A stretch of DNA of 64,000 bases from Amoebophrya sp. A120 (Eukaryota; Protista; Dinoflagellata). The notes beneath the pieces were generated by a model that did no database searches, had not been told where the DNA came from, and saw only the letters and a list, made by a program, of their open reading frames with translations. The DNA lies in NCBI GenBank assembly GCA_905178155.1, contig CAJINV010000002.1, positions 1 through 64,000 on the forward strand. Reading direction: 5' to 3'. Of the stretch, positions 4,460 to 47,100 are shown piece after piece; positions within the stretch are counted from its first letter, which is position 1; each line of letters starts with the position of its first letter. The position numbers were made by a program, and so were the translations under genes.

Positions 4460-7400
4460 CGTGATAAGTGGTGAATAGGTGAACGTCGGAAAATCTTATC
4501 GTGTATGCAAAAATGCCATGACAAAGTAAGTGCTTCTGCGCAGCGGTTTTCCAATTGATACTCCCGCCTCGGCACGACTCAGCTTCCTCTTGTATGCATT
4601 GCAAATATGTCTGGATCTGGAAGAGTCCAAGTTGCTCATGCTAGTTCTCATCATCGGCACAAAAATCTGTATTGCATGACCAGCGAATAAAGCTCGCACT
4701 CTTGGTCCTCACTTCTCATGCGATGTAAGAATTATTGAGGAGCCTTATGCTTATCCAAACTTAAACTTGTGATGCTAGAGCCCGCATTTCAAATCTTCTG
4801 GGTCATGCGAAAGCTGCATGACAACGTACAACAATCTTCCAGACCATGACATATTTGCATTTGATAACTTCGCCCTCGGAGCAACTGGAAGAGGTTGTTG
4901 TAGTATTTGCAAAACTTGTTCTCGTATCCACCGCAAATATATTTTCTGGGTCTGGAAGAGTAGCGGATTTGTCATGCATAGTTGTCACGAGCCAGGAGGT
5001 TTGAACTTTGAGATCCCCCATACCAACCTTTTTTGCATGACAAAGGCCAAAAAAGTTCTTTGTCCTCGTCCTGCTCGCAGAAGTACATATTTTTGCGTCT
5101 ACGAGATTGAGCATCACAAACACGGTTTCTTCCAGATCCAGACTACATATTTGCAATGCATAGTTTAAAGCTGTATCCCGATGAAAAACATCCCCACCGC
5201 AGAGACAAGATTGGCACTCGTCTGCAATCCAAATCGAAGGTTTTCGGGAGTCACGCATGACAAGCTTGCATCTGTATTGTAGTGCAGGCTAGCAAGGACA
5301 GCCGCATCACGGAGCCATCTTGTTATGCTGTTTACAGCATCCCGAACTCCCACTTACAACGAAAAATTCCTCATGGTCATGGCGATGCGCATTACAAATC
5401 TTCTTGCAAGTGCATATCGTGACAACTCTGGGGTGGAGACGTTTTTCCTCAAGATAAGCTGTTGCTCAGGAAGCTTGGTAAGTGAAAAGGAACTACAACT
5501 ACTACCACGGGAGGCGAAGGAATCTTTGCTACTATCGGACAGCCAAGTGGTATTGGAAAATAACAAACAAGTGGTGAGTACTGATGTTATATGGCACGGA
5601 AAAAAGCTAGCCCATCACAATTGTAACGCGAAAGTACTAGATACGCAGAAACATTATAGATCTTGACTGCTTCAGCATCAACCTGCGTGAACGTGCTACG
5701 GGGTTCCCTAACAGATTTTTCTGCGGTCTACATTTGCATTACAAGGGTGGCACACTACAAGATTCTTTCTGTGGGATATACCATTGCTCACGCCCATGTT
5801 GTTGCTGTCGTCGCTGTCGTCATCGACATCGTCATCATCGTCGTCGCCTGTTCCTCCGTTGTATGCACTTCAAAAATATCGGGCCGGGCGGTAGGATTTG
5901 GTTTTGCATCACAAAGTCCGAACACATGAAAAAGGACGGCCGGTGGTTGTGGTCCGTCAGGCTGGGCCATGACAAAAGATCTTTGATGACAAACTGCTGC
6001 GACTCGTGGTAGCAAGTCGATAAATTTGCATGGGATATTCCGCTTTCCTCGGTCGGCGTCGGGTCATCCTGTCGGAAAATGTTGTAGCCACCCCATAGTA
6101 CGCAAGCTGGGACTTCTGCCATGCAAAGAGTTAAAGTCCTTTCCTTTGGCCGTTTTGCATGACAGGCTGGCATCGACGTCCACCGGAGTGTGGGGCCGAA
6201 TAGCTAGTGGAGTTGCAACACAAGACGTAGTATCAAGTGTAAAAATGTCTGGGTCTGGAAGGTTGGAACTTGTAACGCTGTCTCTGGATTCCAAAACTAT
6301 CTGTATTGCATGACCAGCAAGAGGAGCGCAGTTTGTACTACGCGCAGAGGGCATTTCTCATGCGGAATAGGCAACAGGAAACGCTCTAAAAATATGTCAT
6401 GCTAGACCATGCATCACAGACATCACGGCGCATGCATAGCGTGCATGACAAGTCTCAGAACCTTCCAGACCCAGACATTTTTGCATCTGATAAGTAGCTA
6501 TCCAATTTCTCCATTGAGCATCACAAGCTCCTAACCGTGCAAATGCCTGATCTGCACGATAGCACTGGGGTGGGTACTTAGTTACGTTTCTGCGCCGGAT
6601 ACTCGTTCGTGTGGTCGTCGGCTTCTGTTTATATGTGAAGAAACGCGATGGGATGCAACATCGCAAAAGTATCGCGTCAATTGTTCTAAGTACGTATAAA
6701 TTGCATGACAAATAAACTGGTCTCTAAAACCAGGAATGTTGTGAAGCATTGCAACCAAGACTAGGCGCGGAGCTCCTCTTAATAATTGTAAGCAAAACCC
6801 TAAACCTGCGTAGCTACTCAAACAAATATAGCAAAAAAGTGCACCATAGTTCCGGAGGAGGGCCTTTAGTTTATCCTGAGTAAAAACGTCCCTACACCAG
6901 AGTTAGGATGGGGATTTTGCAACACACGCCTAGGAGTTTTGTGCGTCACGCATGACAAGTTGCACTCCGCAGTGTAGTGCAGTTTAGCAAGTGTAGCTGC
7001 GTCACAGATTCATCTGCTCATCCTGTTCACAGAGTCACAAATTCCAAAACACGAGTGAAAATGGCTCTCATGGAGATGCGCACTACGCGTCTTCCTGTCT
7101 TTGCAAATCTGCATCACAACTCTGGCGTGGGGACGTTTTTACTCAGGATATAGCTCGCGATTCTCTTCCGAAAGACGCCGGGCCTTTTCTTCGGCCGCGA
7201 TTCGCTTGGTCTTTTCCTGCTCGTATGCCTTCACAGCGATTCTGTGCTCGTTCCCCCACCAGCGTGCTTCCGCCACATATAGGGGCGTCAAGATCGAAGT
7301 CAACAGATTTGAAATAAAGTGTAATGCGAAAAATCGCTACCAGTTTGTTGGAGAACGAATTTCCAAACGTTGCATGACAAATTTTGAAGGCACCTACATC

Positions 7401-10400
7401 CAGTCTGTCATGCTGTTTGGGCAAAGACGACACCTCTTGTCGTGCTATTTTAGCAGTTTCGCCGCCTCTAAGCCCAAGCAGGCTTCTAATTATCGCCCTC
7501 TTTTGCCTGCTCTGCAAGACAGCGCGTTACTTATGTTGCATGACAAGCTATGACAATATCGCCACTGTGTTGACTTCGATCCTGCGGGTTCCATAAAACG
7601 AGCGCCTCGTGCACGGCATGAGGCATGTGTTCTTCGGCCATGACGTGAGAAGAGTTCTTGGTGGTGAAAAAAGAAAGTTGTAGGTGGAACAAGAAAGTTG
7701 CTGAAAAAAGAAAGTTGTAGGTTCTGCTGAACTCGTTTCCAAAAACTTACGTAACAATACTAATACTTGATTTGTGAACTGACTAAGACATCTGACCCGA
7801 CCCATTCGTTTCCAAATACATAAAAGTAAAAAGTAACGGTCAACCAACGCAATACACCAGTATGTTCATGTTGCTCATGCTCACGAAGACAGGCTTCACG
7901 AAGAAGCAACCAGAGCAAGTTGCGACTCGGATCTTTGGGAATACATGGAAGGACACGTCCCTGAAAAACAGAGACATTACCAAGATCGCTTCCTTAGACG
8001 CTCTACTTCTGAGATCGTTGTGCGGACCTGCTGGTGGAAACTGAGACGTTCCTGAGAAGTGCCTTCACTTTTGTGTCAAGAGCGCGCGCTGGAAAAAAAA
8101 AAACGACGAACAACTTTACACGGTTCTACCATATGCTCTGCTGTGACAGTCGCCGACCAGCTTTGGTCACGTGCGTTCTACTTGTTCCGTCGCCAAACAA
8201 TACAGTAGCTCATTTTCTCTCGTGTTGTTCATGCTTTTGCCTGCAGCTCTCAGGCTTTGCAAGTAGCATCTGTGCATCTAATGGATCCTTCAATCAGCCT
8301 TCTGTTAACTTAGCCATGTAGTAGAATTTCTGCGAGTTTTGTTGTGCATTCAATCGTCATATTTTTTGCTTGTGCTGCTCAAAACGAAAACATCACATGT
8401 CTTACTTAATACTAGCATAATTCTCATCTTCTGTATTCTCGTGGCGTGGATGTTTTGATTTTCATCGCCTCCCTAGTTCTTCTTCTGTCGAAAAGCGCAC
8501 ATTGACTTTCCATGGTGGACCTCCTGCTTGTCACGATTTCACCATACTGCGGCTCCTTTCTGCCGGACCGAACTTGCGACGGCGCTGCCACTGTCAAATA
8601 CAAAAATGTCCGGGTCTAGGACGGGAATGCAACTCCGTGATGGGGAGTTGTGAAGCACTACGGGATCACACTAAAGCTGTTATGAGTGAAACGCAGAAGT
8701 TTTCATTCCTTTTTTTGCGGGATTTGTCATCCGGATTAGGCATGCAGAAGCCTACTTCTGAAAACCTGTGATGCTAAACCCTGCATTTTTCGTCCAGATC
8801 TATATTTATAATGGGACACGCAAAACAAGCTGCATGAGTACATGATCATGCATCTGCAAGGCAATTCTTGTTTCAGACCCAGACACATTTGTATTTCATA
8901 TCCACCCGAGCCCGAGCCTGCATATCCGCACCTGCTGGTCGTTCTACAACTGCCGGCAAGGACGGTGGTGCATTCGATTCTGGGCAGCTATCCACGAACA
9001 AAACTGTCTATTGGGTCACACTGCAGCCCTAAGTACCTTCGTTTTTTTCATGTTTGGAAATGACCGGTCCTTCACGTAATTGCTGTAGTGGGGACCAAGA
9101 TTTTCTCAAGAAAGCGTCACGCTGGAACAAACTCATTTGCATGACATCTTGCGTGAATGTTGTTGAGCACGCATTCTGGGCATGACAAAACACAAGAATC
9201 TAAAACAAACTCTACCTGGGTCAGCCCCCTCCGGTACTACCGGTTTCGTCTTTTCCGAAAAATAGCCCTGCACTTGTCCGGTTGTAGAATCGGCTTTGCT
9301 CGCAAAATGATGACCTCGCATTACTGGTTTAGTACTTGTCGATCTAACCCCATTACTCGTTTTGAAACTCAGGATTATCATTTATGGAAATCCACCTCTG
9401 AAGACCTTGACCACCACCACTTCCACTACTTTTCATGCGAATAAGGGAGAACTGCATGCCATTTGTTTCAAGTTTGACCTTGAGTGACGTTCATGATATC
9501 CAACATGTTGATAGAGAGTGGTCACGGAGGGGAGATGAATTTCACACAGGATATAATGAATTTCTACTGACTCTGTGAAGCATTTCGCAACCACTGCTGT
9601 TGTAGCCCAAACTGTTCGATGACGCTGTTCAAAAAAAAGTCGCGGAATTGATGTACCTGATGGTCGTGATTTACACAGAAGTTTCTCGACATCTAATTCG
9701 GAAAAAATTTGAAAACCGGTCGTGCAAGTAGAAGCATTTCCATTTGTAGTTTCATACCCCGAACTAAAAGAGCTAGAGAGATTTAGCATGCAGGAAAACT
9801 ACACATGACAAAGGTGGACATCGACAACTGTACTTACCCGCATTTTTGTTGGATAATAGCTCTCGATGTAAATCTCTGTTCATCCAGGATAGTTTCGGTG
9901 TAAAAATCGGAATCTTTGTGTTTCTGCACGTCGCCATGCACTGCTGAGCCGACGTGTCTGTGTTTTGTTTTCATTCGCAAGGCCCTGGTCTGATACGACG
10001 AGGGTCGTGCCACGAGGAAGACATTTACTTCTGCATGAAAATGATACTTTTATTTACATGACAGACCAAAAAAAGAATGTTCCCAGAATACCATTTTTTC
10101 TTCCGCTCTTCATCAACGGCTTCTTGTACATTGAAATCAAATGATCTTTGGAAACTGCTTGAATTCTCTGCAACTCTCGACGTCCTTGTAGTTCTGAAAG
10201 TTGTCCTTCCGAACTTGTAGTACTCCTAATAGTACATGAGCGCCGTCAACTCGTTTTGTATGGAGGTGAAAATCACCATCGCGATCAGTTTGTGATGCAC
10301 AGCAGGGAGCTGTTTTTCGAGTTGCTCCTCACATTTGAAAAAAAAAGAGAAAGACATGACTCGTCATGCCAAAACCGCATCACAACTCGTCGATCGCGAT

Positions 10401-11650
10401 GGCGATGGGCATCTTGCAAGGAGTAAAGATACACGATTCTTTAACTTCTAGTCAATTATCGATCCTCAGCTCCTGTGGTAAAAATGTGTTGGGGGTTTCG
10501 ATTGATGAGATTGGACCACCGTTTCTTCACATATGTCTTCTTTTCAGGGCCTACTATTAGCCTTCTCTTCACTTCCTGTAAATACGCATGAAGACATAGA
10601 CACAAAGCAAATCCAACGTAAGTACCTGCTCTAATTTTCCACCCCATCTCCAACACTTGCCTGTGTTGCTTATCGTCCCATTTCCTCCTCTTTTCCATGA
10701 AACTTTCATCGTCACTGTGGCTGTGCTCCACCGCGGTGTTGCCGCTTTGTCCCCACCATCGGGTTTATTTGTGCAGCTGCGGCATCGTCGTCGTCCATGG
10801 GACTGTTTGCTCCGGAGCTGGCGTCGCCTGGGCTCACCGCACTGAATCCCATAAGCGGGATAATCGGCTCTTGTTGGAGGGCATTTCCGGGTGCAGCAGG
10901 AGCCGCTGGGGCCATATCGACATCGACATCCTCGTCGGGAGCAACTGCGGCAGCAGCAGCAGCAGCATCATCTTCCTTTTTTCCGACCTTCTTCTTATCC
11001 TACAGAAAAGTACATACTTCCATACCAGAAAAAAACCATTGTGTTGCTAAAGCCGAATTGCCCTCAGGGGAGGCAATTTCCTGTTTTGCAGACCGCAGCC
11101 TGTAATGCATCACAGAACAAGGTTTGTCATGCTCAACAGGGTTTTAGAAGTGACAGCACGAAATACCGCACCACAAGTTCTTTTTTCTCTGATGTATGTG
11201 TACAACTTTTCTGTAGGGTACGCTGGCTCTTCGTAGTACCAGCACAGCTGCAGATCCGCGCCAGGCGGAGGTTTCATGTAGAGGTGGCCTTCCGGGGATG
11301 CGCCTGAATAGTTACGTTGAAAATTCCGAAATCATGTAGCGTTAATGGTGCATGCAGTGCGATGAATTCAAAGTGTAGCAGCTGTAGGCTGCCAACTTCG
11401 CATGACAGTTCGTAGTTAATAGGTTACCGCGGAGTAGTTGTAGCAAATCCAAATAGAAGATTCACCCACAAAACTGCAGTAAAAAAGTGCCACGCACAGA
11501 AGTAATACTCGCTGCTGGCGTCAGCTTGTAGAACTGCACACCTCCGTGGTCCCCCGTTTCTGTGGTGGTTCCCGTTTCACCCGTTCCCTTAGGATGCGCG
11601 GGAGGCGCCTGGACAGCACCTCCTGCGGGATTTGCCTGGACGAACTGCTG
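4460..11650 (-). CDS. Multi-exon hypothetical protein(s), boundaries unresolved; includes a coiled-coil-like segment
   Basis: Exons ~7859-8089, 7596-7700, 7151-7277 and 6845-6871 join as ...LLWLLLREACLREHEQHEHTATFLFHLQL...MAEEHMPHAVHEALV.AEARWWGNEHRIAVKAYEQEKTKRIAAEEKARRLSEENRELKALLRNY via GT-AG introns and introners. In-frame TAG (8003-8005) and TAA (7994-7996). Confidence 0.45.
4593..4866. mobile_element. Introner, family A (TIR TAT.A.TGCAAATATGTCTGGGTCTGGAAG)
   Basis: TIRs tatgcattgcaaatatgtctggatctggaag / cttccagaccatgacatatttgcatttgata. Confidence 0.8.
4925..5162. mobile_element. Introner, family A
   Basis: tatccaccgcaaatatattttctgggtctggaag ... cttccagatccagactacatatttgcaatgcata. Confidence 0.75.
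5174..5456. mobile_element. Introner, family B (TIR TATCCTGAG.AAAAACGTCCCCACCCC)
   Basis: TIRs present; perfect 5-bp TSD AGCTG. Only 11 nt from the preceding element. Confidence 0.85.
6231..6492. mobile_element. Introner, family A
   Basis: ~30-bp TIRs; TSD CGTAG/AGTAG. Confidence 0.85.
6872..7150. mobile_element. Introner, family B
   Basis: tatcctgagtaaaaacgtccc ... gggacgtttttactcaggata; TSD 4/5. Removal gives ENRELKALLRNY. Confidence 0.9.
7278..7595. mobile_element. Introner, family C (TIR TATGGAAGCGCC...TCGACAAAG)
   Basis: Degenerate TIRs; interior homologous to 22210-22528 and ~34351-34650. Confidence 0.75.
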
Positions 11651-11889
11651 TCTGAGAGGTGCTATGCCCGGAAAGAATGTCGGTGTCAGTGAGTGCGACA
11701 CGCAGACGAGTAGACAGTTGCATACCGTCCTTGCTTCCACTTCCGTGAAACAAATACAAAATAACCATGGCATGCAGACGTCACATCAAAAAAAGCGTAG
11801 AGCGACCTCTGGTAAAGATACCTAAGGCTTGTGATCTTCACTGCAAGAAGGTCGTGAGAAGAGCGTTGTATGGTCATTTTCACAAAATA

Positions 11890-14799
11890 ACTACATCAGC
11901 TGCATCTCGTTGACACCAACCTTCTCGACGTCCATATGCTGCTCCTGTTGTTGTTCCCGAGATGAAGAACTAGAACCCGCGGCATTTATGGCGTTCTCAA
12001 GTGTTACACGCTCAACTGTTGCACAGATTTGTGATGCGAGAACAACAAAAATGAAAGCGGGAAAATTCCGCGTCTTGCATATACAAATTTGGAAGAAATT
12101 GCCATGCTATTTACCCATTCCAGAGTTTGTCATGCTAAACGGGTTGATTGCGTATATGCTGATGACAATTTTGCATGACAGATCATGCAACAGCTGAGCA
12201 TGTAACGTTTGTTGAGAACGCCATATTATTCAAGTTGCTGGTCTGCGTCGTATTAGAAGTAGGCAGTATCCGGACTTCGGACCTCCCGTCACAGTATCGC
12301 AAGAAAAAACTGTTTCTCTGTCTGTGAAATTGTGATGCATACTAGAAGGGAACATAGACCTACTTCGCTTACTCTACTCTTGCAAGACAACGGGTTACTT
12401 TCAAGCAGGGTCATTTTTCTTGGGAGGAGCGCACGGCGAAGAAAAAGAAATCTATTTCCTGTGTCATGCAGACCTGGCAAAGCCATCAGTCGTGAAGCAG
12501 TTTTTTCCTGCGATAAGCAGAACTGCGTTTGCAATGGACTCGCGGCAGGAAATAGCTGCTCCAGATCTGTCGGCGGGGCGAGTTTGATCGCGGGAAAACT
12601 GCTGACGCCACTGGACGAGGTGGACAGGACCCGCGGCTCGTTGACCGAGGCGGACTGCTCGCCCCGGATGATCTCGACGGTGGTCACATCGCGAGAGGAA
12701 GTGTTTTGGTTCGAAGTTGAAAGAAGGTCGGCGTTATTTGTGTGGTCTTGGTGCGGCCTGCTCGGAGCAGATGCAGATGGTTGGTCGTGGTCTACTTGTC
12801 CGATTTCTTTATCGAATGCAAAAACTATGTTTGGGTCTGGAAGGAGCTTGTTTTGCCCGATGAGGACAATTCAATTCTTGACGGCCAGGCATGATAGGAT
12901 TCTGAGTTGCTGGGGTAAAGTCTGTTCCTCATGATGTCAGGGCAACCTGCGTTTTTGAATGACAGAAAAGAAAAGTCAGCACGTTTGGCGTTAACGCGCA
13001 TGACAGAGTTGAAAACTAAGGTTGCCGAGCATGATGAGACCCCTTGCTCTCTTCCTGACCCAAACTACATGCTCGCAATACATAGTCTTGCAAGTCGAAC
13101 ATTTTATATTTTGGCAATTTTATGGCCAGCTCAAGGATGCTGTCGCCAGTCTTCCGCGTGATGGTCTGCAGCGGTGGTGCGTCCGGATTGTGTGGCATCG
13201 TATAGAAAAAATCCCTTCTCCCCATATTCCAAAGAAAATTTCTGATCATGCGCGATTTGTGTACACAAATTTTCGTGCACAAATCAAGTTAGTATTTTGC
13301 TAGGAGCAGCCGAAGACACGCAAATCTTGACTGTCTGCAGGTAGTTTATCATGCTATTCCTGTTCCTGACAGTGTGGTTGCTTCCCCTGGTCATACTGAA
13401 GCCGCACGGCCTTCCCAGCATCACGCCAGCGACCACTAGAGTCCGCATCTCTGCTTCCCGACTTCTAGCATGACAAAACTTGACTTTTCTTGCACACAAG
13501 CCATGCTAGACAGATCTGCGTTCGAATGTGGGGAGGAGGGGAGTTGTCATCTAGTTGTCATCTTGATAGGCTCGTTTATGTATTCGATCACGAACTTCCT
13601 CTCATGGGCTTTTTCGATGTCGCGCAGCTGCTGCGGTGTGTATTCCTCGTGTGCTATGGCGTTCTCCAACGTTACACTCTCAACTGTTGCATGAATTTGC
13701 AATGCAGGAACATAAAAAGTGAAAGGGGAACGGTTCTTGCGCCTTTTGCATTACAGGTTTGGAGCAGATTAGAATCTATCTAGCAAGGCGGGAACTTGAA
13801 CTTCTCGTGCGACGCAGCTTGATCATGTAGATGTTGGTGCCAATTTTATTGCATGACAGATTCATGTATACAGCTGAGAATGTAACGTTTGAGAACTTCA
13901 TATGAACAAGCCTGAAGTTTGTCCGCTCGTTCATCCTGAGGAAAAACGTCACCAGCTCAAAGCCAAGAAGGTATGCATTTTATTGCTACCAGAACCAACG
14001 ACCTTTCTTGCGCGTGGTGCATGACAAGTTTGGGTCTCTAGCGTAATCGTGCTCAGCTATTGAAGTCACACCAAAAACGTCGCTTCTGCTCATGACAATG
14101 CTCCAGACAGCATTGACGAGACGCTTCTCATGGTTTTGCACATGAAACACAGTCTGGGAAGGTCGAGGTGCATGTGAATTTGCATGACAACCTTGGGGTG
14201 GAGACGGTGACGTTTTTACTCAGAATACCACTGTAGCTATCGTTGGGATCCGTCATGGTGTAGGATCGGACCAGTATCACACCGAAAAAAGTTAGAAGGT
14301 GTACTATCGTGTCGTGCAATGCAAAAGTAACCGCCGGCAAGAAAAGTCTATTTGCGTACGGTGCCACAGCTACGTGTACGTGTTGTTTCAAAAGCCATAC
14401 CTTTGTGTTGCGAGCCAAGTCTGTTTTTGCATTTGCAAGTTGAGCATCTTGTACCACCACACTAGCTCTTTCGGTTTGGATACTTCCCTGCACCTTGGTT
14501 GTCGAGCCCGCCACTGTATCGTACATCATGCGGATCTCCGAGCCGGGCGGAAGCTTGTGTTATGGCGCTGGGAAAAAAAAACCACCCCCGTACCCGTTAA
14601 CTACAGGCATTTTAATGCCTGACTTATTGTCACAAATCACCACCGTGACTTCATGCATTGAGCGACTTCAGAGACTTACAAGCCGACGTCGAGAGAGAGG
14701 TACAACTGTAAGAGTCTATAACAAATTGTTCGCCACGACCGTAGTTGCGGCTGTAGGTTCAAACCAACTCCGCTCGTTCGGCTCTATATAGACTTGCAT
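11890..14799 (-). CDS. Multi-exon hypothetical protein (3' end uncertain)
   Basis: ATG at 14799: MQVYIEPNERSWFEPTAATTVVANNLL(TAG)TLTVVPLSRRRL followed by GTAAGT. Continues ...KLPPGSEIRMMYDTVAGSTTKVQGSRSYTMTDPNDSYSG across an introner. Large exon ~12555-12809. Confidence 0.5.
11987..12225. mobile_element. Introner, family E (TIR TATGGCGTTCTCAA.CGTTACA)
   Basis: TIRs present; homologous to 13655-13902, 16369-16584 and 36112-36361. Confidence 0.75.
13655..13902. mobile_element. Introner, family E
   Basis: tatggcgttctccaacgttacac ... tgtaacgtttgagaacttcata. Confidence 0.75.
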
Positions 14800-14876
14800 T
14801 TCGAAACTGCGGCGCAAAGAAGTCTTGTCATGGAAATAAATATCTATGGAAATAAAGGGAGCAGCTTTTCTTTTAT

Positions 14877-17800
14877 TCATTTTGATAGGTTAGGTTGCAA
14901 ATTCATGGCCTTGAGATAGTCGTCTTGCAGCCCTTCGTACGCGAGGTTCTGGATGTGCAGTTTGTGCTCTGCTTTTTTCTTTTCCTTTTCCGCTTCCTCC
15001 GCTCTGCCCCGTGCTTCCTTCGCTCGTGTAGCTTCCCCCTCCGCACGTTTGCGTTCCTGCTCCATTTTTGCCTGGGCGGCTCTTTTTTTCTCTGCTTCGT
15101 CCCTGGCTTGCTTCTCCTGCACCTTGTTCATTTTTGCCGGTTATCAAATGTAAAAATGTCTGGGTCTGGAAATTTCTGAGACTTGTCATGCGCGTTTTGC
15201 ATGGGCCATGGTGTCTGTGATGCATGCCCTAGCATCACAGACTTTTTGAGGGCTTCGCGATGCCTATTTATTCCGCATGACAAATGCCCTCTCCGCGTAG
15301 CCAAAATAATCGCATTCCCTTTTCTGCTTACGCAATACAGATTTTTTTGGAATCCAAATGCAGCATCACAAGTTTGCATTCTTCCAGACCCAGCCATATT
15401 TGCATTTGATACCAGTTCCTTCACCACACGTTCTGACCGTTTGTTAGTGCGCTCGAGCTTGACCTTTTCGACGTTTCGGAGGGCCTGTTCGGCCTCCCGG
15501 CGACGTTCCTCAGCGAGGCGATCCTGTTCCTGCTCTCGTGCTATCCGCAGTCGTTCCGCTCGAGGTCGTATGCATTGCAAACATGGCCGAAAGGACTGGG
15601 ACTCCATGGAAACTTGTCATGCAGAATCTGATGATTGAATCGTGCAAAACCAAAAGACTGTGTAGTTCGGTGGAGCAACAACTGTTGTTGCCCACTTCTT
15701 GCCACGCAAAGGGGGAATCTCTCATGCGAAATAGGAACTAAGAAGCTCTTCTTGCACAATCTATAGTAATGCCTCCGGGTGCAAGTACTTACCTTACCAT
15801 GCTAGACGATCATCTTTGAGCTCCACAAGGAGCTGCGTCATGACAAACCTTTCACATTCTTCCAGACTGAGACACATCATTTGCATTTGATAGCCCGTTA
15901 TGCAGTGCAAAAGTATCGCACTCGTATAAATGCATTACAAATTTCCGCAGCATGAGAAATAAAATTTGGATTTAGGTTCGGAAAAAAATTTGTAATGCAT
16001 GCTTGCAATACGAGTACGATACTTTTGCAAAGGATACCCGTTTTTCTGCCTCTTCACGACGCTCTTCTCGCACTCGTTCTTATCAAATGCAAATATGTGT
16101 GGGTCTGGAGGTTTGTCGTGCGTATTTTGCATGACCCATGATGCCTGTGATGCATGACCTAGCATTGCAGATTTTTATGGGCATGGGGCTTCCTCATTTA
16201 AAATCCGCATGAGAAATACCCTGTCCACCGTGTAGCAGAAACTCGGATCCTCTTGGTAGTGACGCAATACAGATTTTGGACAGCAGCACAAGTTTCAACC
16301 TTCCAGACTCAGATGACATATTTGCATTTGATAGTTCTTGTTCCCGATCAACATCGGCTAATGCTGGTTATGGCGCTCTCAAGCGTTGTTCTTCCATTGT
16401 TCGCTGTTGCAAGAATTTGTGATGCAAGTAGGCGAGCAAAGAACCTAAAAGCATTGCAGATTTTTGCTGCGCGGTGAACCTGTCATGCGAAGTAGCTACC
16501 CAGAGGGTGTTGATACTGATTCTGCATGAGAAATGATGTTAGTAACAGCGAGGATGAATGAACAAACGCGAAGTCACTTCCATACTTGTTGCCGTTTCTC
16601 TTCCTCGCCTCGAATCCGTTCTGATGCGAGCTCGCTGTCGCTGACAATAGTGTCTTTCGACGCAGGGGCAGAAGGGGCATTTTGAACGCGCAGGAGCGCC
16701 TCTGCTCGGACCGAGGCCCCGCTCCGCACGCCGAGGCGCAGCAGAGAATTGTTGGTATTAGACGACGCGCCACCGCCCGGGTTGCCGCTGCTTCCTACAC
16801 CTGATCGCGTTGATTCGGCGACGGGGTCTAAGAATGTGTTGCGGGATGAGGTCATTTTGGAGCTGTTGTTGCTTGTTTGTTGTGCGGTCTGTTCTGACGG
16901 AGACGAAGCGGAGTTACTTGCATTGTGGTTCTGCTCTTCTCGCGCCCGAACTTCTGGTAAAAGTCGGCTAGTACTACCCTTCGCGCGGCCTGATTCCGGT
17001 TCGGCAACCGGATTTTGGTTTTTACCACGTCGTGGTATCAGGCCGGACGGAACATGCTCTTGTTGCGCCGGAGGCTGCAATTTGTGCTGTTCTACCGGGA
17101 CGCCCCCGAGCGGCGGATTCTGCATGTGGGTACTAGCGTGGACCTGCAGTCTGCTCTGCTGTTGTCGCAGCTGCTGGTGCCCTTGTGGCCTGCGCAAAAG
17201 CTGCTGCTCTATGTCGTGTGAAGTCCGGATTTGCTGCTGCTGTTGTCCCAGGAGCTGCTGGTGTTCTAGCGGCCTTGGCAGCGGCTGCTGCTGCTGCTGC
17301 TGCTGCTGTATCCCTTGTGCAGTCCAGATTTGCTGCTGCTGTTGGAGGGGTTGTTGGTGACCGAGTAGCTGCTGTTGCGGTTGCAAGACCGCTCTACTCT
17401 GCTGCGGTGGCACCTGTATTCTGTGTTGCGGTTGCACTTCCACCTGCTGCATATGGTACTGCGGGTGCAGGTGATCATGCTGCTGCTGCTGTTGCCTTTG
17501 TTGCAGGAGCATGTGGTGCTGATTCGGCATCTGCTGCAGCTGTTCCTGGTTCTGTTGTTGCTGCTGCTGCTGCTGCTGTTGGGCATGTCCCTGCAACGAG
17601 GCCCGGTGCTTGAGGGACGGCATATCCGGGCCCCGGTTGTGGTCTCTCATGATGTGTGTCTCGTGCGGTAGTTTCACATGAGCATGAGAACAAATCTACA
17701 GTAGACCAGAACTCCACGAATTGGTTACGATGTGATGGGAAAAAAGCGTACAAGAGGACAAGGCACAGTTGCTCGAACCATGAGTACGTGTACATGGGGC

Positions 17801-19829: not shown

Positions 19830-20210
19830 TTCTGCCAAAATGGCGACCGCGATATTTTTTGCCAAAGTGGCAGCTTTATTTTATTTTGCCAAAATGGCAG
19901 GTGAGTGTCTTGTTGCCAAAAGGGCACTATAATTCTGTCGTATACTTTTTGCCAAAGTGGCAGCTTTATTTTTGCCAAAATTATGGCAGGTGCGTGTCTA
20001 CTTGTTGCCAAAAGGGCACTCTAATTCAGTCGTACACTTTTTGCCAAAATGGCAGATTTATTTTTGCCAAAATGGCAGTTGACTGTCTTGTTGCCAAAAG
20101 GGCATTATAATACAGTCGTAGACTTTTTGCCAAAGTGGCAGCTTTATTTTTGCCAAAATGGCAATTGAGTGTCTTATTCTTGCCAAAAGGGAACTATATT
20201 TCAGTCGTGT
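19830..20210. repeat. Satellite, ~88-bp unit x4, built from TTGCCAAA(A/G)TGGCA palindromic sub-units
   Basis: About 13 copies of TGCCAAA, most followed by TGGCA/GGGCA; higher-order unit ends in ...TCGTA.ACTTTT. Confidence 0.85.
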
Positions 20211-29800: not shown

Positions 29801-32800
29801 AGTGTCGCGAAGTCGCTGCTCAGCCTCGCGGCTGCGGGGCGCTCCTTCTCCGCCCGACTCCTTGCTATGCGTTTCGACGTTGGCCGTGGTCGACTGCAGG
29901 GACGGGAGTTTTTGCTGACGCGGATACTCGCTGCCGCCGTCGTCCGCGGGCGGCTCTATCAATTGCAAAACTCTCGTCGCACACGCGCAAAGACGACAAC
30001 TTTTGCTGACAAGGCCACTTCTGTTTTTGTTCTGCGGTACAAACAAGATGTAGTGGTAGGCCGAACTACAACTACTTGTTCGCGCAACAGAACCATCGCA
30101 CCTTGCCAGTGCCAGTGATGCGCTTTGGACGTGCGCGACAATATTTGCAATGCGTATATTTTTCTGCAGCGACGAGGGGTCGGCCCGTGGTAGCACTCAC
30201 CTCCTCCATCGTTCTGGTGCCCTATCCTGTGCAAAAATGTCCCCACCCCAAAGTTGTCATGCGAGAAATCATCTGCATTTGCATACAATAACAATGTTGC
30301 TCATGCACAACCCCACGAGTAGCATTTTTCCATGCAGTCTCGGACGAAAAATCTGTCATGCTCTAATCAGGGTTAGATGATCGATTTATGAAGATGACGC
30401 TAAGCTAGCTCACACTGACTATGCTTCATGCTCGAGTTTGTCAGGCGTCAGTTCCAAAAGAACCAAAGCTGGTGGATTTATTTGCCGTGCAAACTCTCCT
30501 ATTTTGACTATGGGATGGGGACGTGGTGTAGTTTGCACGGAATATACTTTCTACCGGTGCGATTCCGGCAGTTGCGTCTTCTACCTGTTCTTTATTCTGC
30601 CCGAGAATCGCAGTCGCCGTCACGGTATCCAGTGCAAATGTGTCTGGGTCTGGAACAAAAGTACAAGGTTTGTCATGCATATAAGGGAGACGCAGATGTT
30701 GATCTGGAACGCAGCCAGAAGCACCACTGATTGCGCAAGAGCTTGTTTATGCCTGTTCCGCATGAGAAGATCGCCCGTTGATGCGTGGCAGAATCTGGGT
30801 AGCATTTGCCATTCCTGCAACACAGACTCTAGCACCATCCAGATTTAGCATGGCAGGTTGCAGCGTTCCGCACTCAGCCACATTTGCAATGCATACGCTG
30901 AGGTCTGCTCCACCTGCTGCAGCTGTACGAGATTGCGGCTGGTAGAAGAAGACGGAGCTGCTGTCGCTGGTGCCTGCATTGCGTTCACCTGGTGCATCAC
31001 ACCCGCAGACCCCGCGGAGGTCTGCTCCACCTGCTGCAGCTGTGCGAGATTGTGGTTGGTAGAAGAAGACGGAGTTGCTGTCGCTGGTGCCTGCATTGCG
31101 GTCACCTGGATCACACCCGTAGACCCCGCGGAAGTCTGCTCCACCTGCTGCAGCTGTGCGAGATTGCGGTTGGTAGAAGATGGAGTTGCTGGCGCTGGTG
31201 CCATATCCTGTGCAAAAGTATCGTACTCGTATAAATGCAAGTCTTGATGCATCTTGTTCTCAAGGCAAATCTGCATTATAATTCTATTTCTCATGCTGAG
31301 GAAATTCGTAATGCACTTATACGAGTACGATACTTTTGCAGTTCATATACCACCCGCATTGCGTCCACCTGGATTGCGTCGTCCGCACACCTGTTTAGGG
31401 GTCTTTGTTGCTGCTTGTCATGCGTATCGCCCATTTATGAGGGAAAAAAAAGCACAAAGAGGCACGCAGCGCCTAGGAGGGGGCTGGGCCTGCGGCCTAC
31501 TAAAGTTAAAGTACTTACGTGCAACAACATCATCAACTTCTTCCTCATCCACCACCAGTGGACAATTTGAATTTCTCGTACAGTCGATAATACGGCGAAA
31601 ATGTTGAGAAAAAATTCATCAGTACCTCGTCGTGCGAGCCGCCGCCAGGCGAGCCGCTGCCTCGGCCCGCTCCTCCTCCGTTTCCTCCCTTATTCTGAGC
31701 AAAAACGCCCCCACCCCATAATCAGGTTGGTAAGTCCGCAGTACAAGTCCCTAAGTATTGGGAGCTGTGCATGAGAAGTTTCCAGCACCCTCTGCAGTGT
31801 AGTGCTGGGTAGCAAGGGCAGCCGCATCACCAAAATATTCCCTGCTTATGCTGCATGACAAATCGAAATCCCAGAACGCGACTATAAATTGCTCTCATCA
31901 TTCAGCGAATGCGCATTACAGATATTTCGATGAATCCAAATCTGCATGAAAACTATGAGGTGGGATCGTTTTTACGCAAGATATCCTTAACGTGCCGGGA
32001 CACTACGTATCGGGGCGCCTCACCGTCTCCAGCGTCGGAACGTATCCATTGCAAACGTGTCTGGGTCTGGAAAAACCGTACTTCTGATGCTTGCTTGCCA
32101 TTCGCGCAAGAGCGGCATTGCATGACAGACTAGGAAAATTCACGACGCCTCCCTCGTCATTCAGAGGACATGCAACTTGTAATGCGTACCACGTGCGACG
32201 AAGCGCGACGGAAATTTGTCATGCTTGACAGACCACTGACCCAGCGATCTGCGTCACAACTTTCCAGACCCCGACATCTTTGCAGTGGATATGGTAGATC
32301 AGTTGGTCCGTGTAGCGCTGGCAGTAGAATTGGAGCTGCTTCTCGGCCAGCGGCTCGACCCCGTCGCGGGCCGCGGCGCGGTCCAGTGCCTCGAAAAATG
32401 TCCGGGGGGTGGGCTTCGCCTCCACCCCGAACCCCAGCCCGTGCAGTGTGGGGGCCTCCGAGTTTAGCGCGTCCAATCCGAGCCCCGCCGCTAAGCTCTC
32501 CGAGACGAAAACCCGCAGCAGCTCGAGGTTGTGGCCACTGTCCTCCAATATCACGGAAAAGCTATGCGGGTCGCCTAGTTCTCGCTTGCTGCCTGGATTT
32601 AGCCGCCTCACGCAGCCTTTCTCGTCGTCGAATAAGTCCATGGCCGCCAATCGGAGGTTGGTATCCAGTTTATAAAAAAATACGAAAAAAATGTCGCTTG
32701 ATATCGCTTATCACAAAATAAAAATGTCGTCATTATCACAAAATGTCGTCGTTTTTTATGTCGCTTATCACACAAGAACATATATAGAGTCATTTTTTCT

Positions 32801-35899: not shown

Positions 35900-38800
35900 T
35901 CCTAGAAGAGTGCGACAAACGAAGTAGTAGAGGGCGTTGGTTTTATTTGCGGTCGAAAAAGTAGATGCTCTTTTCTCGCGAATCAAAAGTCACTTCCACC
36001 AAGCTATCAAAGATAAAAAACACATCGGCCGCACTAGCGGTAGAGAAGGCTCGCCTCTTCCTCCTCCGCTTCCTGTGCGTCTCCCTCCTCCTCCACCTCC
36101 TCCTCTTCTTGTATGGGGGTTCTCAAGCGTTACACTGATTGCTGTACACGTCATTTGTCATGGAAAATCTACCAGCCTCCAAAGGTTCAAGCTACCTTGA
36201 ATGGCAGGCAGTTCTCAAAGCGCAAAACGGCATGGACATCCGACGTTCCAGATTTTTCGCGCATGGCGCGCAATCCCCCTCCTTCAATTTTGCAATTTTG
36301 GAATAGCAAACTCATCATGCGTTAGCCGATATCATTCAATGCAACGCTTGAGAATTTCATATCAACATCTGCTTCCTCTTGATCTTTCTTTTCTTCAGCA
36401 TCACCCTCCTCAAATATGACAGTGCACAACTCCCCCTCCTCCTCATTTGTAATTGCAAAATCCCAAATCCAGCTGCTGCCTTCGCCTTGCAGCACTGTTT
36501 GCATGACAAGTCCTGGAAGCCCAAACAGCACTATTATCCAGCGCAAATCTGTCATGCAAAACCGGCACTCTTGCTGATGTTTGTATTGCCGTTCATGCTA
36601 TACAAATGAGGGGGAGGGGGAGTTGTGTACTGTCATATCAGCCTGCCTTTGTAGTTTCAGCCAGTTGGATGCCCGGTGCTTCTGCGCGATTTCGTATCAA
36701 AACAAAAAATCCCCGCTCGTCCCGGTGCTGAAGTGGAAATCTTGTGACAATGCAGATTTGTTCTTGTTGGCATGTTCTTGTAGTGTCATAAGTCAAAGTG
36801 CAGATTTGTGTTGCGCCAGGACAGCTACAACATCACAGGCTCCTACTATCTGCTCTGTTCAGGAGGTGTACTAAAACAGCACCAGTCCAGGCATCGGGCA
36901 TGACAGAGGAGGACGTGGTGGCCGGGCGGTCCCCACCTCTGCTGTGGCTCACACGCAACACAAATTGCCGATAAAATACTGGTGTTGTATGCAAGACGAA
37001 ACTGTGTGAACAAGTTAGGTTTTGCGCCCACAAAGTCGCTTCGTTGGTAACCTATTCCACTCTGAGTACTACAACTATCATGGAGAGAGAGGATTTTTTT
37101 CTCGCCATACCTGTGTGTTTGAGTATTCATGAAGATGCCGCTCGGTACCAGTTTGGAACAGAACACTATTTCCCATATAACTAAGACGCAAACTAAAATC
37201 AATGAACAAGGTCAAAGGTTGAAGGGAAGGCCAGGAGGTAGTATTGACCGATCGAGCAAGATGAAAAAGATTCGAAATTATACCAAAGAAAAGTCCTGCC
37301 AGGGAATTTGGTAATATTTTTCCGGCTCGCCGACGAAGACTATGCTCACTTCCTTCTTGTCAATATCCTGAGCGAAAAGAACGTTTGTACCCCAGCAGTG
37401 TTGTCATGCATATTTCATCCCCGACGTGCATGCCCAGGCTGTCGTGTCTCATGCGCAGGACGAGTCCCATGAAGAGCATTCATTTCTCATGCTGCCTGCT
37501 GGATCTGGCAGGACTTCTCATGCTCTAATCAGACTTTAAGGAACTTTTACGATATTTGTGATGTGACTTCAACAGCCAACCACGACTACACTTGTATGCT
37601 TCACCAGAGCACAAGCGAGTGGATTTGTGCAGGGGGATTCCCATCTCGCCTCTGGGGTGGAGACGTTATTATTCCAGAGGATAGCTGTGGTCACTGTCCG
37701 CGACGTGAAACTCCTTGGTGAGCATCCAATCTTCCACCTTTCCCGTTGGGCCTTTTTTGTCGACCATGCAATCGGGTAATTTGACGAAACATTTGCCGTT
37801 TTCGTAGGCTTCTTCCTCCTTGTCCTCGCGCTCCTTGTCCCTCAGGGCCCGCTCTGGTTGTTTCGGCCAGTAGAGGCTCTGGCGCAACTTGCTGCTAATG
37901 TCGACCTCCAAAATAAAGTCTTCATCCGTTGCGCTCTCGGTGGCCGACTGCTGCACCGGCTGTCCCTGGACCGGCGGCTGGGTTTCTTGCAGCGGTTGTG
38001 GCGTCCCCGTGTCGTCCAGGCCGAAAATTCGGACGTGCTGGAGATCCGGTTCATCCGCAACCAAATTTGACAGCAAGGCCTCGCGGGTCTCGTACGGGTG
38101 ATCTTGTTTCAGGTCGGTTGTCCAGAACTCTTCCAGCGCAGTATCGTTTGCCAGCGAGTAGTCCGCTGCGATTCCGTATCAACTGCAACTATGTCTGTGT
38201 CTCTGGAATAAAAACGTAAACGAGTGGAACCACATGTTTTGGTTGTCTTGCATTTCGCGTGCCAAATCTTTATTGCATGTAGGATAAACAACAAGAAGAT
38301 GAAAAGTAGTGTCGCCTGTTTTGTCATGCAAGAATACAGTTTGTAGTGTGTGTGAAACACCACGAGAAAGCTACGTGCTACGAATTCGTCATGCTTGAAT
38401 GCTCTACAGAGGTTGTTCAAAAAATAAGTACTCCCATTCCGCATCACAAATTTCCAGACCCAGCCATTTTTGCGTTTGATAGCTGGATGCCCGGCTCCTC
38501 ATCCTGCACCGACTCGCCGACGTCCTCCGCCTCCTCCCCGACGTCCTATGAACTGCAAAAGTATCGTACTCGTATAGAGGCATTACAAATTTTCTCAGCA
38601 TGAGTTGAAATGAAATTTGTAATGCGGATTTAGCTTCAGAATCAGAAAAAAAATTGTCATGCATTTATACGAGTACGATACTTTTGCACAGGATACGTCC
38701 TCCTCCTCGACAAAATCCAGATCTTCATCCCGTCCCGGGCTTATGCATTGCAAACATGTTGGCCTCTGAGTCGGATAGAGAAGTGGGATGAACCTGTGAT

Positions 38801-41800: not shown

Positions 41801-43920
41801 CGCATCTAAATTCTAAAAAAAAGAATCTGTGTTGCATGAGCAGCACGTGGGGGTCAGGTTTTCTCTACGAAGAGGGGATTTCTCATGCGGGAGAAACATC
41901 AAAAATACATCAAGAAATCTGTGCCACGACGGCACGCATCATAGTCATGCGCCTCATGGAAAACATGCATGGCAGTCGTCGCACTTTTCCCGACCCAGAG
42001 ACATTTGCGATTGATACCCGTCTCGATGAGTTTTTTCAGTTGGTCCAGGTTGTGCTCTCTATACCGCTTCTGGTCCGCCGATTCCTGTTGTGGTTTCGTT
42101 TGCCGAAAGACGATGATCTCGCCCGGTCGGGTTTCGTCCTTTTTCGTTTGCAGTCGTGTGTAGGAGCGCAGGAGCTCGCGCTCCGCAACCTTCTTACTAT
42201 GGAACGAAAAAAGTTTGTCACGGCCACTCGTACGCATTTTTGCAATACAAAAATGTTTGTCATGCGTAGAAAGACATGCATCATGGTCCAACTGCATTTA
42301 TACGGGACGTATCTTGTGTTTGTGCAATCCAAGAAAAATCTGCCATGCTAAAAGGTTCACTCATAAAAAGCCTGCTAGTCAGTGACTGCTACGAAGAACT
42401 TTTTCCACTCCATACCTACCCGCCTGGGTGTAGTACGACTTCGACAGCAGCGCTGTCGGTTTTGGAGTCGAGACGCTTCGTCTGGCTTGATTGTCCTTCC
42501 CCTTTCCGTTGTTCTCGTCCTTTTTCGAATTCTTATTCTTTTTTTTCTCCTGCTCCTTACCTTTCAGTTTCAAGTCCTTATTGCTCAGGTTGTTATCGTC
42601 ATGATCAGCGACACATGCATTGCAAATGTGTCTGGGCCGACTTGAAACTTGTCATACTATGTGGGGAATCCGAATCGGAATCACACGGAGAGCTTCAGTG
42701 ATAGCCAAGCATGACAAATTGTTGTTCAAAAAACTTGCCAGGCAAGATAGAAAACATGCGTCTTGCATTACAGAGAAGCGTGGCTTTGAGTTGAGAACCG
42801 TGCTAGCACTGCATGACAAGCCTTTCACTCTTCCAGCCCTAGACATATTTGCTTTTGATAGTACAGCTGCAGTCCTGGACTGGTTCTGCACTGCCGCGCT
42901 CGAGGACTGGTTCTGCACTGCCGCTCTCGGTTCCGGGGGTCGTGCCGGTGCACTGCGGGAACGGAAGCTGTGCAATGTAAAAGCTGTGCTAGTGCAGGTT
43001 TCATCTACTTGGTGTGAGAGCATCTGTCTTAATGGCACAGGTTTAATCTGTGATGCTCTGTTTGACAGAGAAAAGCCTGTGGCGTAAAAACAAGTAGCTA
43101 GTATGTGAAGCCCAAAACATAGCGGGTGAAGAGATCATTTTCCAAAAGGTACTAGCGAGCATGACAAGGGTGTTGCTACATGTTCGCGTTGCTACAATCT
43201 GCATTACAGACGAGGTCGCAGTTTACTCTAGAACAACTTTTTTTCTTGCATAAGGAGGTGCGTCGTCCGCCAGAAGATCATCTTCTTCGTCCTCGACCGG
43301 AGTTTATGAACGCGACAATTGCTTCACTGAAATAAACTTGTAAATGCAAAGAACGGCACACAGAAGCATGTGTCTTCTAGCTACGCATGCTACACCTTGT
43401 CCTTGAGTATCTAGCTACGTTTCTCCCCGGGGGAAACGCACATCATGGCAAGTTTTCTCACTTTCATTTCCTGGTGAAGAACAACCTTCGTCGATGCAAA
43501 ACTTGTATAAAGCCTTGCAGTGAAACACTTTTTTCGTACGATAGAGTGGAGGACGACTTTTCACCGGCGGGAGAGGACTTGTTGGTACACTTACCCGGCT
43601 ATCAACTGCAAATAGGTCTGGGATGCTAGAAATAAAAAGGAGGTGAAGATGCTGCTATTTCTTGGAGATTCACAAGGACCCCTCAGAAACAAGAGGGAAA
43701 GCAATACAAAAATGTGAATTGCTCCTGGTAGCTGCAGCTGTTGTTGATCATTATTGCACATAACACGTTGCATTTCTGCATCATAGTATCTATTAAAGTT
43801 GGGCCCGCGTCGTGACAAGCACAACCTGATGGCCCATGCTTTCATCATCCCCATGACAAATTCTTCCTGACCGCCTGGACTGATTTGCAGATCGTACTGG
43901 CGTGCTGGCCGTGGGTTTAG
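35900..43920 (-). CDS. Multi-exon hypothetical protein(s), unresolved
   Basis: Protein-like minus-strand exons between introners, e.g. ~37675-38176 (LLSNLVADEPDLQHVRIFGLDD...), ~39063-39234 (acidic) and ~42017-42200 (KVAERELLRSYTRLQTKK...). Confidence 0.4.
36415..36637. mobile_element. Introner, family F (~37-bp TIR TATGACAGT.CACAACTCCCCCTCC.CCTCATTTGTA)
   Basis: Near-perfect long TIR; TSD TCAAA/TCAGC. Confidence 0.85.
38547..38695. mobile_element. Introner, family D
   Basis: Long TIR; perfect TSD CGTCC. Confidence 0.9.
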
Positions 43921-43929
43921 GGTTGCTAG

Positions 43930-44191: not shown

Positions 44192-47100
44192 TATTGCGGA
44201 GCTGAACATCAGCATCTGGTCGTCGTCGTCGTCGTTTCCATCTTGGCGGTATCAAATGTAAAAATGTCTGGGTCTGGAAGGTTACAAGGTTTGTCATGCA
44301 TATTTTGCATGAGTCAGGATGTCTGTAATGCATGATCTAGCATCACATATTTTTAGAGGCCTTCCTGATGCCTCTCCCGCATGACAAATGCCCTCCCCGC
44401 GCAGCACAACCTGGGCTCCTCTTGCTGGTCATGCAATACAGATTTTCTTAGCGTCCAAAGCTAGCATCACAAGTTCCAACCTTCCAGACCCAGACATTTT
44501 TACATGTGATAGGCGGTCCAACAGCGGCTTCTTCGTCGTCGGTCCGGGCCTTGTCGCGCAGGAAAAATGCTGTAGTCCCGCGGTCCGGCGGAAATCAAAC
44601 GCTGTTCTCGTGCGGGAAAGATAGAGGACTTTCTAAACGGTATGTTTTGGATGAACTCGACATATTTTTAGCGAGGACCACGATTCGCATTTTTTCTCAA
44701 AGAACAACTATTCGCATGACAAATCTGATAAATGCGATTTTATGAACATCCAAACCTGCGTTTGATTTGGTTTTCGTCACGGGAAGACTAGAGTTGTTTC
44801 TATGGTGGATAAAAACCGCATGCGATGACGACGACGCTGCTCCCGGCGGCGAGCGCTGTAGCAAAGAACCTGACGGAACGGAAGTTTAGTATTTCAATAA
44901 GCCCAGGATCGGGTCGTTTATCCTTAAGACGAAAATAAATTAAAGAAAATTATAGCTTACTGCACATGCGATGCACTGCCTGATAGGGATGCTTTCATTT
45001 TCCTCGAACCACAAACACCAAAGAATCTGCGATTTCTGCTGGAGTACTTCGATATACAATGGTGAGTACATAATAACTATTGCAATTGGTAAAAAGAAAG
45101 TACTTCTATACGTTTAATCACATTGCTCTTCCCGGTCCCAGGCCCACTGCTGACGTCGCCCGGCGGTGGCGCTGGCGGTGGGTCCACTTCCTCTGCGATG
45201 GTCTCTTCCTGGCGCAGCGAGCGAAATGTGGCGAGTATCACATTGAAAAGTCCACCCGCCTCACAATGTGAAAGCCTTTGCAGTGCAGAAGTGCCAAGGG
45301 AAACACTTTTTTTATGTATCAGCAGGGCGGAAAATAATATGAAATTTGCAAGCCATGGCAGCAAAGGGCTGCGTTGCTGCACAGCGCCGCAGCGCAAGCA
45401 ATTTCTGTAGTCATTTTGACATTGCATTACAAAGATAACGTAGTTCCGGTGCTAAAATAAAGTGCGCCGCGTTCGTGTCTTGCAGGGGAAAATAGTTTCC
45501 CATGTGGAAAGCTCACGCGATGCAACCTGTTCGGCATTCTGGTAGAGGGGCATTTTTCAGTGTGATAGCGAACGGCTTCACCAAGTTTTCCTCAAAGTCG
45601 TCCTGGAGATCCGGGGACAACGGTTCGTCGATTATCAAGTGCAAATGTGCCTGGGTCTGGAAGGTTGCAACCTGTCATGCACATTTTAGATCATACAAAA
45701 ATTTGTCTTGCATAAACAGGCAGCGTCGTGGCCTCTTTTTTGCCAGCACGGGGAGAGCGGGCTTCTGATGCAGAGGAGGTCTCGTGAGGCTCTCGAAGAA
45801 CCTGTGACGCTGGTCCCTGCATGCCAGAAGATGCTCTGGGTCTTTCAAAACCTGCATTACAAACGTTTACACCCACCCAGACCCAGACATATTTGCAGTT
45901 GATATCTTTGCCAGGCGACAGTGCGCGGAGGTAGACCCTGGTATCCTACGGAAAAATATTAGCACGACCCCACTTCTTTAATTATGTGAACCAGTAACGA
46001 CTGATACCCCCATAATATATTTGTATGCCAGTACACGAAGGACCCTGCCCCTTCCTGTCCTAGAACAAACGCCGCATAAAAATCGCCAGTGCATATAAAG
46101 TGGCCATTTTGTCTGGCCCCTTCTGGTCCCGCCGGACCCTTCCAGCACTGGCCCGGCCGTCAAGTACGGGGCCCCCTGTAACTACTGGGGGCCCCGTACG
46201 CAACTGGTCCTACGATGCCCCTGCGCCCTCGTTTTATATTGCCCTGGTTTTGTCCGACTGCGACACGCAGCTGCGTAACCAAAACAAAACAACCACTCAG
46301 TGAAAAACATTGAAGAAGAGCTACGCCTCGGTCCTCTCCACTTTAAATCAGTAGACTCAGCAGCAAGAGCGCTAAGGAGCGAGAGAGTTCTGTTAGCTAC
46401 CAAATCGCGCACGCGAAACACCCTCGGTCCCTGTATGTTTTCACTCGAAACGCCGCCTGCAAGCGCAGCCCCGCCGCCTGCTAACAAAATATCGATCCGC
46501 AAGAGGTCTCCACCGCGCGCGCGCCGCTAGTTTTGATCACGCTACTGCTGGTGGAATACACAACGCAGCCAGGTCCCAAGCGTAGCACACAGCTATCAGA
46601 GAGCAACAGCTCGCAACCCACAGCTATCAAGCATAATTTTTCTCGCGCACCCGTAGACAAGGAAAGTAGACACACATTTTAAAAGCAAGCACTGGAGGTG
46701 AAAAATAGGCAGTATTTCATACACAGCTAGTATCTACGTATCTATACACAAGCAAGGTCTTATACACAGGCAGCACTCACATCGATCAGAACTTACGCAT
46801 ACAAGCTTTGCACATCGGCACCGATATACCAGCGCCGACGTCGTATCTGAAGGCGTTATTAATTAGCATTAAGTGGCAGCAATAGAAATATCGTGAAAAA
46901 AGCAACTATTCAGAGGGAAGCAGCAGAAGCAAAAAAAGTATAATCTTTGGGCGGGACAGCACACACAGGAAAAACATTTTGGGAAGGGGTGCACACCCAT
47001 ATTTTTTGCATCTGAGCAGTAGTGGAGTATCAGCAAAATGACTACTGCAAACGAAATGAACCAGCAGGAGGTCGCGGAAGGCCTCCAGGAATGGGCCGCG

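Follow-up and report, generated by a model that had tools for sequence, protein, structure and literature searches.

A probable one-base exon between two adjoining introner-type elements in Amoebophrya sp. A120

The introner elements of Amoebophrya A120, also treated in PMC12130899, are described in the main text and legends of PMC7789003 as carrying terminal inverted repeats of 8-20 nt with the signature TAT-N7-AAA, with direct repeats of 3-5 nt at the exon/intron border, as having ends other than GT-AG, as being removed with RNA support, and as forming repeated families. The same text calls the splice sites variable (legends of Fig. 3 and S23), places the inverted repeat 1-5 nt from them, leaves the position of the cut open, and states the recognition of the non-canonical introns as an open question, with no U1 snRNA found and the borders termed 'unknown'. 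Among other lineages, the available text on the introners of Polarella and Symbiodinium (Roy et al., bioRxiv 2020.10.14.339549) describes elements with terminal inverted repeats, target duplications and a consistent splice-site position relative to the element, with GT, GC or GA donors depending on the class and AG acceptors, where stated, supplied by the element or the duplication. The non-conventional introns of euglenids and Fritillaria, as presented in PMC11282704, derive from MITEs and have hairpin ends whose offsets from the non-canonical junctions are fixed. Compound sequences that leave in two steps and are easily annotated as a single intron are reported in the fungal stwintrons (PMC8469720) and in recursive splicing with a zero-length exon (PMC5126111). 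Finally, the texts consulted report single-nucleotide exons in Arabidopsis APC11 (PMC4674806), where the exon was proven by mutation and sequential removal was proposed, in Fusarium CYP621A (PMC12940212), in plants as 1-nt microexons (PMC8831610), and in placozoan cox1 (PMC5436844).

The locus described here combines features of these systems. As in APC11-type cases, a single coding base would lie between two introns and be required for the frame. In contrast to the APC11 base, which is flanked by AG and GT and visibly foreign to both neighboring exons (PMC4674806), the base proposed here would be the remnant of a target duplication between two transposon-derived introns with non-AG acceptors, is hidden in alignments, and is deduced from the splice register of the surrounding elements. 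Unlike in Polarella and Symbiodinium, neither the first base of the donor nor the acceptor dinucleotide appears to be constrained; compared with the euglenid and Fritillaria introns the motifs and offsets are different, and the covered text of PMC11282704 does not mention a one-base exon. With respect to the A120 elements themselves, we propose a fixed register where PMC7789003 leaves the cut open. The main text of that paper has no match for microexon, micro-exon, small or short exon, or nested. Across it (supplementary figures as legends), PMC12130899 and a wider literature that leaves out most subscription journals, we found neither a microexon between introners of Amoebophrya nor such a register described. 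Thus, A120 introners and one-base exons are both already known, and it is the one-base exon between non-canonical introners, together with the register, that we did not find reported.

Two elements six nucleotides apart

The window, by which we mean the whole 64-kb stretch of DNA analyzed, is intron-rich eukaryotic DNA strewn with elements of 140-370 nt whose ends read TAT-N7-AAA and its complement; judged by this repeat signature, they are likely to be introners of the Amoebophrya A120 type. When the flanks of 44 element pairs in the window were compared, identity reached 0.55 at a length of 5 nt, where 7 of the 44 pairs were perfect, and lay at 0.21-0.32 for the remaining lengths between 2 and 9 nt, which indicates that the target duplication measures 5 nt and that the peak is not due to chance. 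Two of the elements, A and B, lie on the minus strand in a single gene, where B precedes A in the transcript, and the 6 nt between them form the shortest of the 43 spacers separating successive listed elements. The features of this locus are as follows (registers are explained in the next section; X1 to X5 are contig sets).

8187-17861, minus strand: host transcript, from contig pieces; record 13 of X4 runs 8187-17269
17650 to 10712, minus strand: modelled coding sequence of 923 codons, with a Q-rich start and a charged, coiled-coil-like middle
16038-16076, minus strand: exon of 39 nt upstream of B, from the joints 16075->16334 and 15564->16037, with bounds in the -1/+4 register
16037-16041, minus strand: upstream copy of the B duplication, a perfect match to 15894-15898; its last base is G16037
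15899-16036, minus strand: introner B (138 nt), probably the younger of the two, with 10/13 in its terminal inverted repeat, which extends to about 30 nt
15893-15898, minus strand: spacer of 6 nt, in which the downstream duplication of B (15898-15894) overlaps the upstream duplication of A (15897-15893)
15569-15892, minus strand: introner A (324 nt), probably the older of the two, with 10/13 in its terminal inverted repeat
15564-15568, minus strand: downstream copy of the A duplication, 3/5 matching 15893-15897, both mismatches lying in the spliced-out part
15413-15564, minus strand: exon of 152 nt downstream of A (contig pieces 15412-15564 in X1 and X4)
15895-16037, minus strand: putative intron B, 143 nt, GT..GG, delimited by the -1/+4 register rather than by a separate joint
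15565-15893, minus strand: putative intron A, 329 nt, CT..AC, with the 3' end fixed by the joint at 15564 and the 5' end taken from the register
15894, minus strand: putative 1-nt exon, G on the transcribed strand, the only base to remain after excision of both elements in the -1/+4 register
10091-9958, minus strand: predicted GT-AG intron of 134 nt, a length required by the contig record coordinates
31204-31347 and 38547-38695: full-length relatives of B within the window, at about 78%

The two elements and the spacer have exactly the coordinates given in the first-pass annotation, which had also read the spacer as overlapping duplications of both; this holds in full for B (5/5), whereas the A copies agree at only three of five positions, a mismatch that the annotation did not mention. 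Both elements are complementary at 10 of 13 positions of their repeats, all four ends conform to TAT-N7-AAA, and their flanking repeats fall within the 3-5 nt described for A120. B belongs to a repeated family by virtue of its two full-length relatives, whereas A shares termini only, with nothing beyond terminal or short matches elsewhere in the window. The perfect duplication, long repeat and close relatives of B, set against the drifted duplication and terminal matches of A, suggest that B is the younger insertion. An assembly artefact was considered and rejected: record 20 of X5, a DNA-like contig that runs through introns, covers 15382-15925 with no other letters and no gaps, and hence A, both of its flanks, the spacer and the first 27 nt of B are not assembly errors, with the qualification that X5 may be the source of the window itself.

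The first-pass annotation had allowed for the host gene being silent; contigs of X1-X4 cover it, these sets being taken as RNA by guess as their contigs skip GT-AG introns that X5 runs through, and X1 and X4 being two samples of one study. Our model of the transcript comprises 18 introner-type elements and five GT-AG introns, and agrees with the contig record coordinates at 7/7 checkpoints if the one unlisted intron of 134 nt is allowed; introners G, H and I are supported in it by a length sum of 220 nt and the open frame rather than by joints. None of five exon translations of the host protein matched Pfam, and a search of metagenome contigs for related loci with a 22-nt exon pattern yielded no match. 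About 1.4 kb of transcript lies 3' of the modelled stop codon (10712-8187, minus strand) and contains seven introns, three of them introners and four GT-AG. Further short exons of 24-42 nt occur between introners of the same gene at 13904-13927, 16335-16364 and 14229-14270.

The splice register of the introners

We denote a register by the number of nucleotides removed before the opening TAT and after the closing ATA; where the copies of a target duplication have drifted apart, they reveal which bases the mRNA kept. Joints are listed for eight single elements (C, D, E, N, O, Q, R and S). Each of these loses the element plus 5 nt, and a single register, (1,4), is compatible with all of them: the donor cut falls 1 nt ahead of TAT and the acceptor cut 4 nt past the closing ATA. 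No duplication similarity is left at Q and R, and both allow (1,4) alone. If a loss of element plus 5 nt is assumed, four further elements seen through contig piece ends (F, K, L and M) and one in a retained-intron unitig (J) all allow (1,4) and none allows (0,5), with L and M fixing (1,4) exactly. Thus, every one of the 13 introners with RNA information in the host transcript fits an intron of 1 nt + element + 4 nt with an N-TA donor; the ends of Q are weak (4/13), and those of J, F and Q were chosen partly from the joints, so that these are not independent. The register derives from this one gene and one compatible joint in its neighbor. It is not a product of selection for frame, as three of the elements (Q, R and S) are located 3' of the stop codon.

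The donor side can be examined without assuming element plus 5 nt. The base before TAT is missing from the mRNA at six of 11 junctions (F, L, N, Q, R and S); the duplication masks it at four others (C, D, E and O), and the remaining junction is that of B itself. In the six direct cases the base is C, T or A and never G; of the elements preceded by G, O, D and E are ambiguous and G and H have no listed joint. Hence, a cut before G-TAT would follow from the GT donor that it creates and from Table S4 of PMC7789003 rather than from direct junctions. In the portion of that table covered, the second intron position is T in all nine predominant non-canonical A120 types, none of which starts with TA; these nine cover only about 20% of introns and perhaps carry annotation bias. 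The canonical donors in our transcripts begin with GTA in all six examined, and with GTAT in three, so that the T and A of N-TAT fall where positions 2 and 3 of a canonical donor would be.

Applied to the A/B locus, the register would make G16037 the first base of intron B, which would then begin with a GT donor, and would place the B acceptor at 15895/15894 and the A donor at 15894/15893, neither of which has the usual AG or GT. Taken as one unit, A+B instead loses the element plus 4 nt in the register (0,4) only, which no other element matches. Predicted folding is weak evidence and does not discriminate for A: the ends of B pair with each other at a probability of 1.0 at repeat positions 9-13 and outer B-A pairing has 0.0, while the stem of A is given 0.39 alone and 0.0 in context or after removal of B. 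Four elements (F, J, K and Q) lack a predicted stem and yet fit the register, which, with the unstable stem of A, suggests that, if the predictions hold, the end sequence may matter as much as the hairpin.

Several side observations concern the intron ends. The closing repeat of the elements is often TTGATA, with its A 7 nt before the acceptor (e.g., 15892-15880 read on the plus strand, and 15142-15154). The branch-point motif is YTRAY; judged by its letters, TTGATA is branch-point-like and could be a ruler for the 3' cut. Intron J is retained in contigs of X2 and X3 (13163-13599; window 13192-13569) and intron S in one of X2 (8562-8882; window 8588-8901), both having a non-GT donor in register. 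Non-GT donors are possibly spliced more slowly, the level being something that contigs cannot show.

Joint removal of A and B and its explanation

Contigs in X1 and X4 carry the joint 15564->16037, across which both A and B are missing, 472 nt being skipped with no slide and without GT-AG ends. By the record coordinates, the next listed piece follows at exactly 69 nt (39+30), so that the junction contains no extra letters; the records of X2 and X3 have the same layout as in X1 (piece 16585 onward at record position 691). The junction lies inside the frame of 923 codons, while removal of A alone, of B alone or of 473 nt ends the frame at 383-399 codons (385 for the last). Both the net single nucleotide that had been predicted to remain and the mature junction built on it are thus borne out in the transcript contigs, and exon skipping or use of another frame is rejected. 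The same annotation, which offered a 1-nt exon and a composite intron as its two options, had proposed this junction as a check. The junction is as predicted, but it does not separate them: the extra G could derive from 16037 or from the spacer, G15894 and G16037 being indistinguishable in mRNA, and one cut of 472 nt as well as twelve combinations of two cuts reproduce the same message. The G also fits 16037 and is foreign to the upstream exon, in the manner of APC11, only if the -1 donor register holds.

What we favor, at a probability of roughly three in four (0.77), is that A and B are two hairpin introners, each cut separately in the -1/+4 register, with G15894 kept as a 1-nt exon. One in-register cut would remove 473 nt and shift the frame, and therefore the observed 472 nt need either two in-register cuts or an off-register donor. 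The latter would be supplied by one composite intron of 472 nt (16036-15565, TA..AC), with its donor at the TAT of B, the G taken from 16037 and no middle exon. This gives the exact mRNA with a single joint, and none of the 15 joints listed is a singly spliced form, either B-only (143 nt) or A-only (329 nt), rare forms being dropped by contigs; moreover, the outer ends in isolation can form a short duplex predicted at -6.1 kcal/mol over 13 nt, a value similar to those of the self pairs, and the direct register tests include no element preceded by G. Against this stand an acceptor in register but a donor 1 nt downstream of the normal one, a loss of element plus 4 nt seen in none of the eight single elements, the need to pass over a GT donor lying 1 nt upstream, and the absence of TA-starting types from the nine predominant ones in the covered part of Table S4 of PMC7789003. 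We accordingly regard the composite intron, one of the two branches originally offered, as improbable. An in-register composite of 473 nt is rejected, as it shifts the frame and does not occur among the 15 joints listed.

Among the twelve two-cut combinations, those in which the cuts are not both in the standard register would leave a middle piece of 0 nt, with B cut at TAT and a ratchet-like re-splice, or of 2-6 nt. The perfect duplication of B hides its cut, and so does not distinguish them. Nevertheless, only (1,4)+(1,4) and (0,5)+(0,5) apply one register to both elements, and (0,5) is excluded at N, Q, R and S and at F, J, K, L and M, which makes such mixed cuts still less probable than the composite. 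In recursive splicing an acceptor is directly followed by a regenerated donor, the AG-GT ratchet, and no base is kept. No AG-GT occurs in the spacer 15893-15898, and a zero-length middle needs B at (0,5), which is excluded at nine other elements; recursive splicing therefore does not fit the locus. A stwintron is rejected, as B in register ends one base before the A donor and leaves the splice elements of A uninterrupted, and an A intron that starts at the middle G with element plus 5 nt is not among the compatible combinations. In both known kinds of compound intron, as far as described in the texts consulted, no base survives as it would here. A last alternative, a single in-register cut of 473 nt followed by a non-templated G from editing or repair, is formally compatible with the mRNA, and section 10 of PMC7789003 allows possible editing at 2-4% of intron boundaries. 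It appears very improbable, given that a templated G sits exactly where the register predicts it and that element joints with given ends need no added base.

Under separate excision, the locus may have arisen as follows. A would already have been an intron when B inserted at the last exonic bases before the A donor and duplicated 5 nt, and splicing of B would remove all of this duplication except its final G. A spliceosome with a relaxed first donor base might read N-TAT as GTA, with the acceptor set by distance from the end of the element and not by AG. The two cuts would be sequential, with B first slightly favored, in which case the single base would never need to be recognized as an exon.

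Two low-depth contigs of X1 lie inside A (15554-15713 and 15701-15871, depth 2.4-2.6), the bins inside introns C, E and F having no cover. Removal of A as the last step would fit, but we do not count these contigs: neither reaches the 5' end of A, they may stem from carried-over DNA, and contig depth does not measure level. Raw reads of X7 and X8 match only the shared repeat end near 15142-15171 and nothing of the host gene; the X7 reads do so at >=99% (at least 99%) inside other sequence context, and this repeat end thus occurs in another locus or lineage.

Extending the favored reading, we would give even odds to a more general proposal: a ruler tied to the ends of A120-type introners (N-TAT donor, acceptor 4 nt past ATA, GT and AG unneeded) would let exonic insertions, even against an existing splice site, be removed cleanly, hundreds of hidden exons of 1-5 nt would be annotated as single odd introns, and much of the apparent chaos of splice dinucleotides would reduce to one rule plus alignment slippage. 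The figure of hundreds multiplies 1/114 per exon (22 internal exons here) by about 66,000 introns and presupposes that insertions occur uniformly and are tolerated. The drifted target duplications of one transcript fix the position of the cut, and the A/B locus offers a sharp test of recognition. It also offers a concrete origin for a one-base exon, namely insertion beside a splice site already in place, and one would expect from it a class of misannotated introns.

A second spacer and other features of the window

An 11-nt spacer at 5163-5173 had been cited as a similar case, but it is not comparable. It lies in the neighboring gene within the following features.

4885-5781, minus strand: GT-AG intron of 897 nt, from the X4 joint 4591->5782 with 14 letters that correspond to 4871-4884; the frame is open across it
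4925-5162, 5174-5456 and 5590-5778: three elements inside this intron, the third beginning 3 nt inside the GT donor

The spacer is present as sequence and is intronic in the one contig crossing it, that of X4, which skips it within the 897 nt; X2-X4 have no cover at 5066-5676. Use of 5163-5173 as an exon is rejected, as the spacers read as exons give stops in all three frames, with stops in 5585-5459. This intron counts against separate removal of A and B insofar as neighboring elements can leave together, though here with GT-AG ends.

Short spacers are also present elsewhere in the window at 43897-43929 (33 nt) and 63005-63040 (36 nt). On the plus strand, 47023-51198 holds a stop-to-stop frame of 1391 codons whose GC content is about 70% and within which no element ends were called. 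Tandem repeats occur at 1-1180 (unit of 312 nt), 19878-20159 (about 90 nt) and 30896-31223 (about 115 nt).
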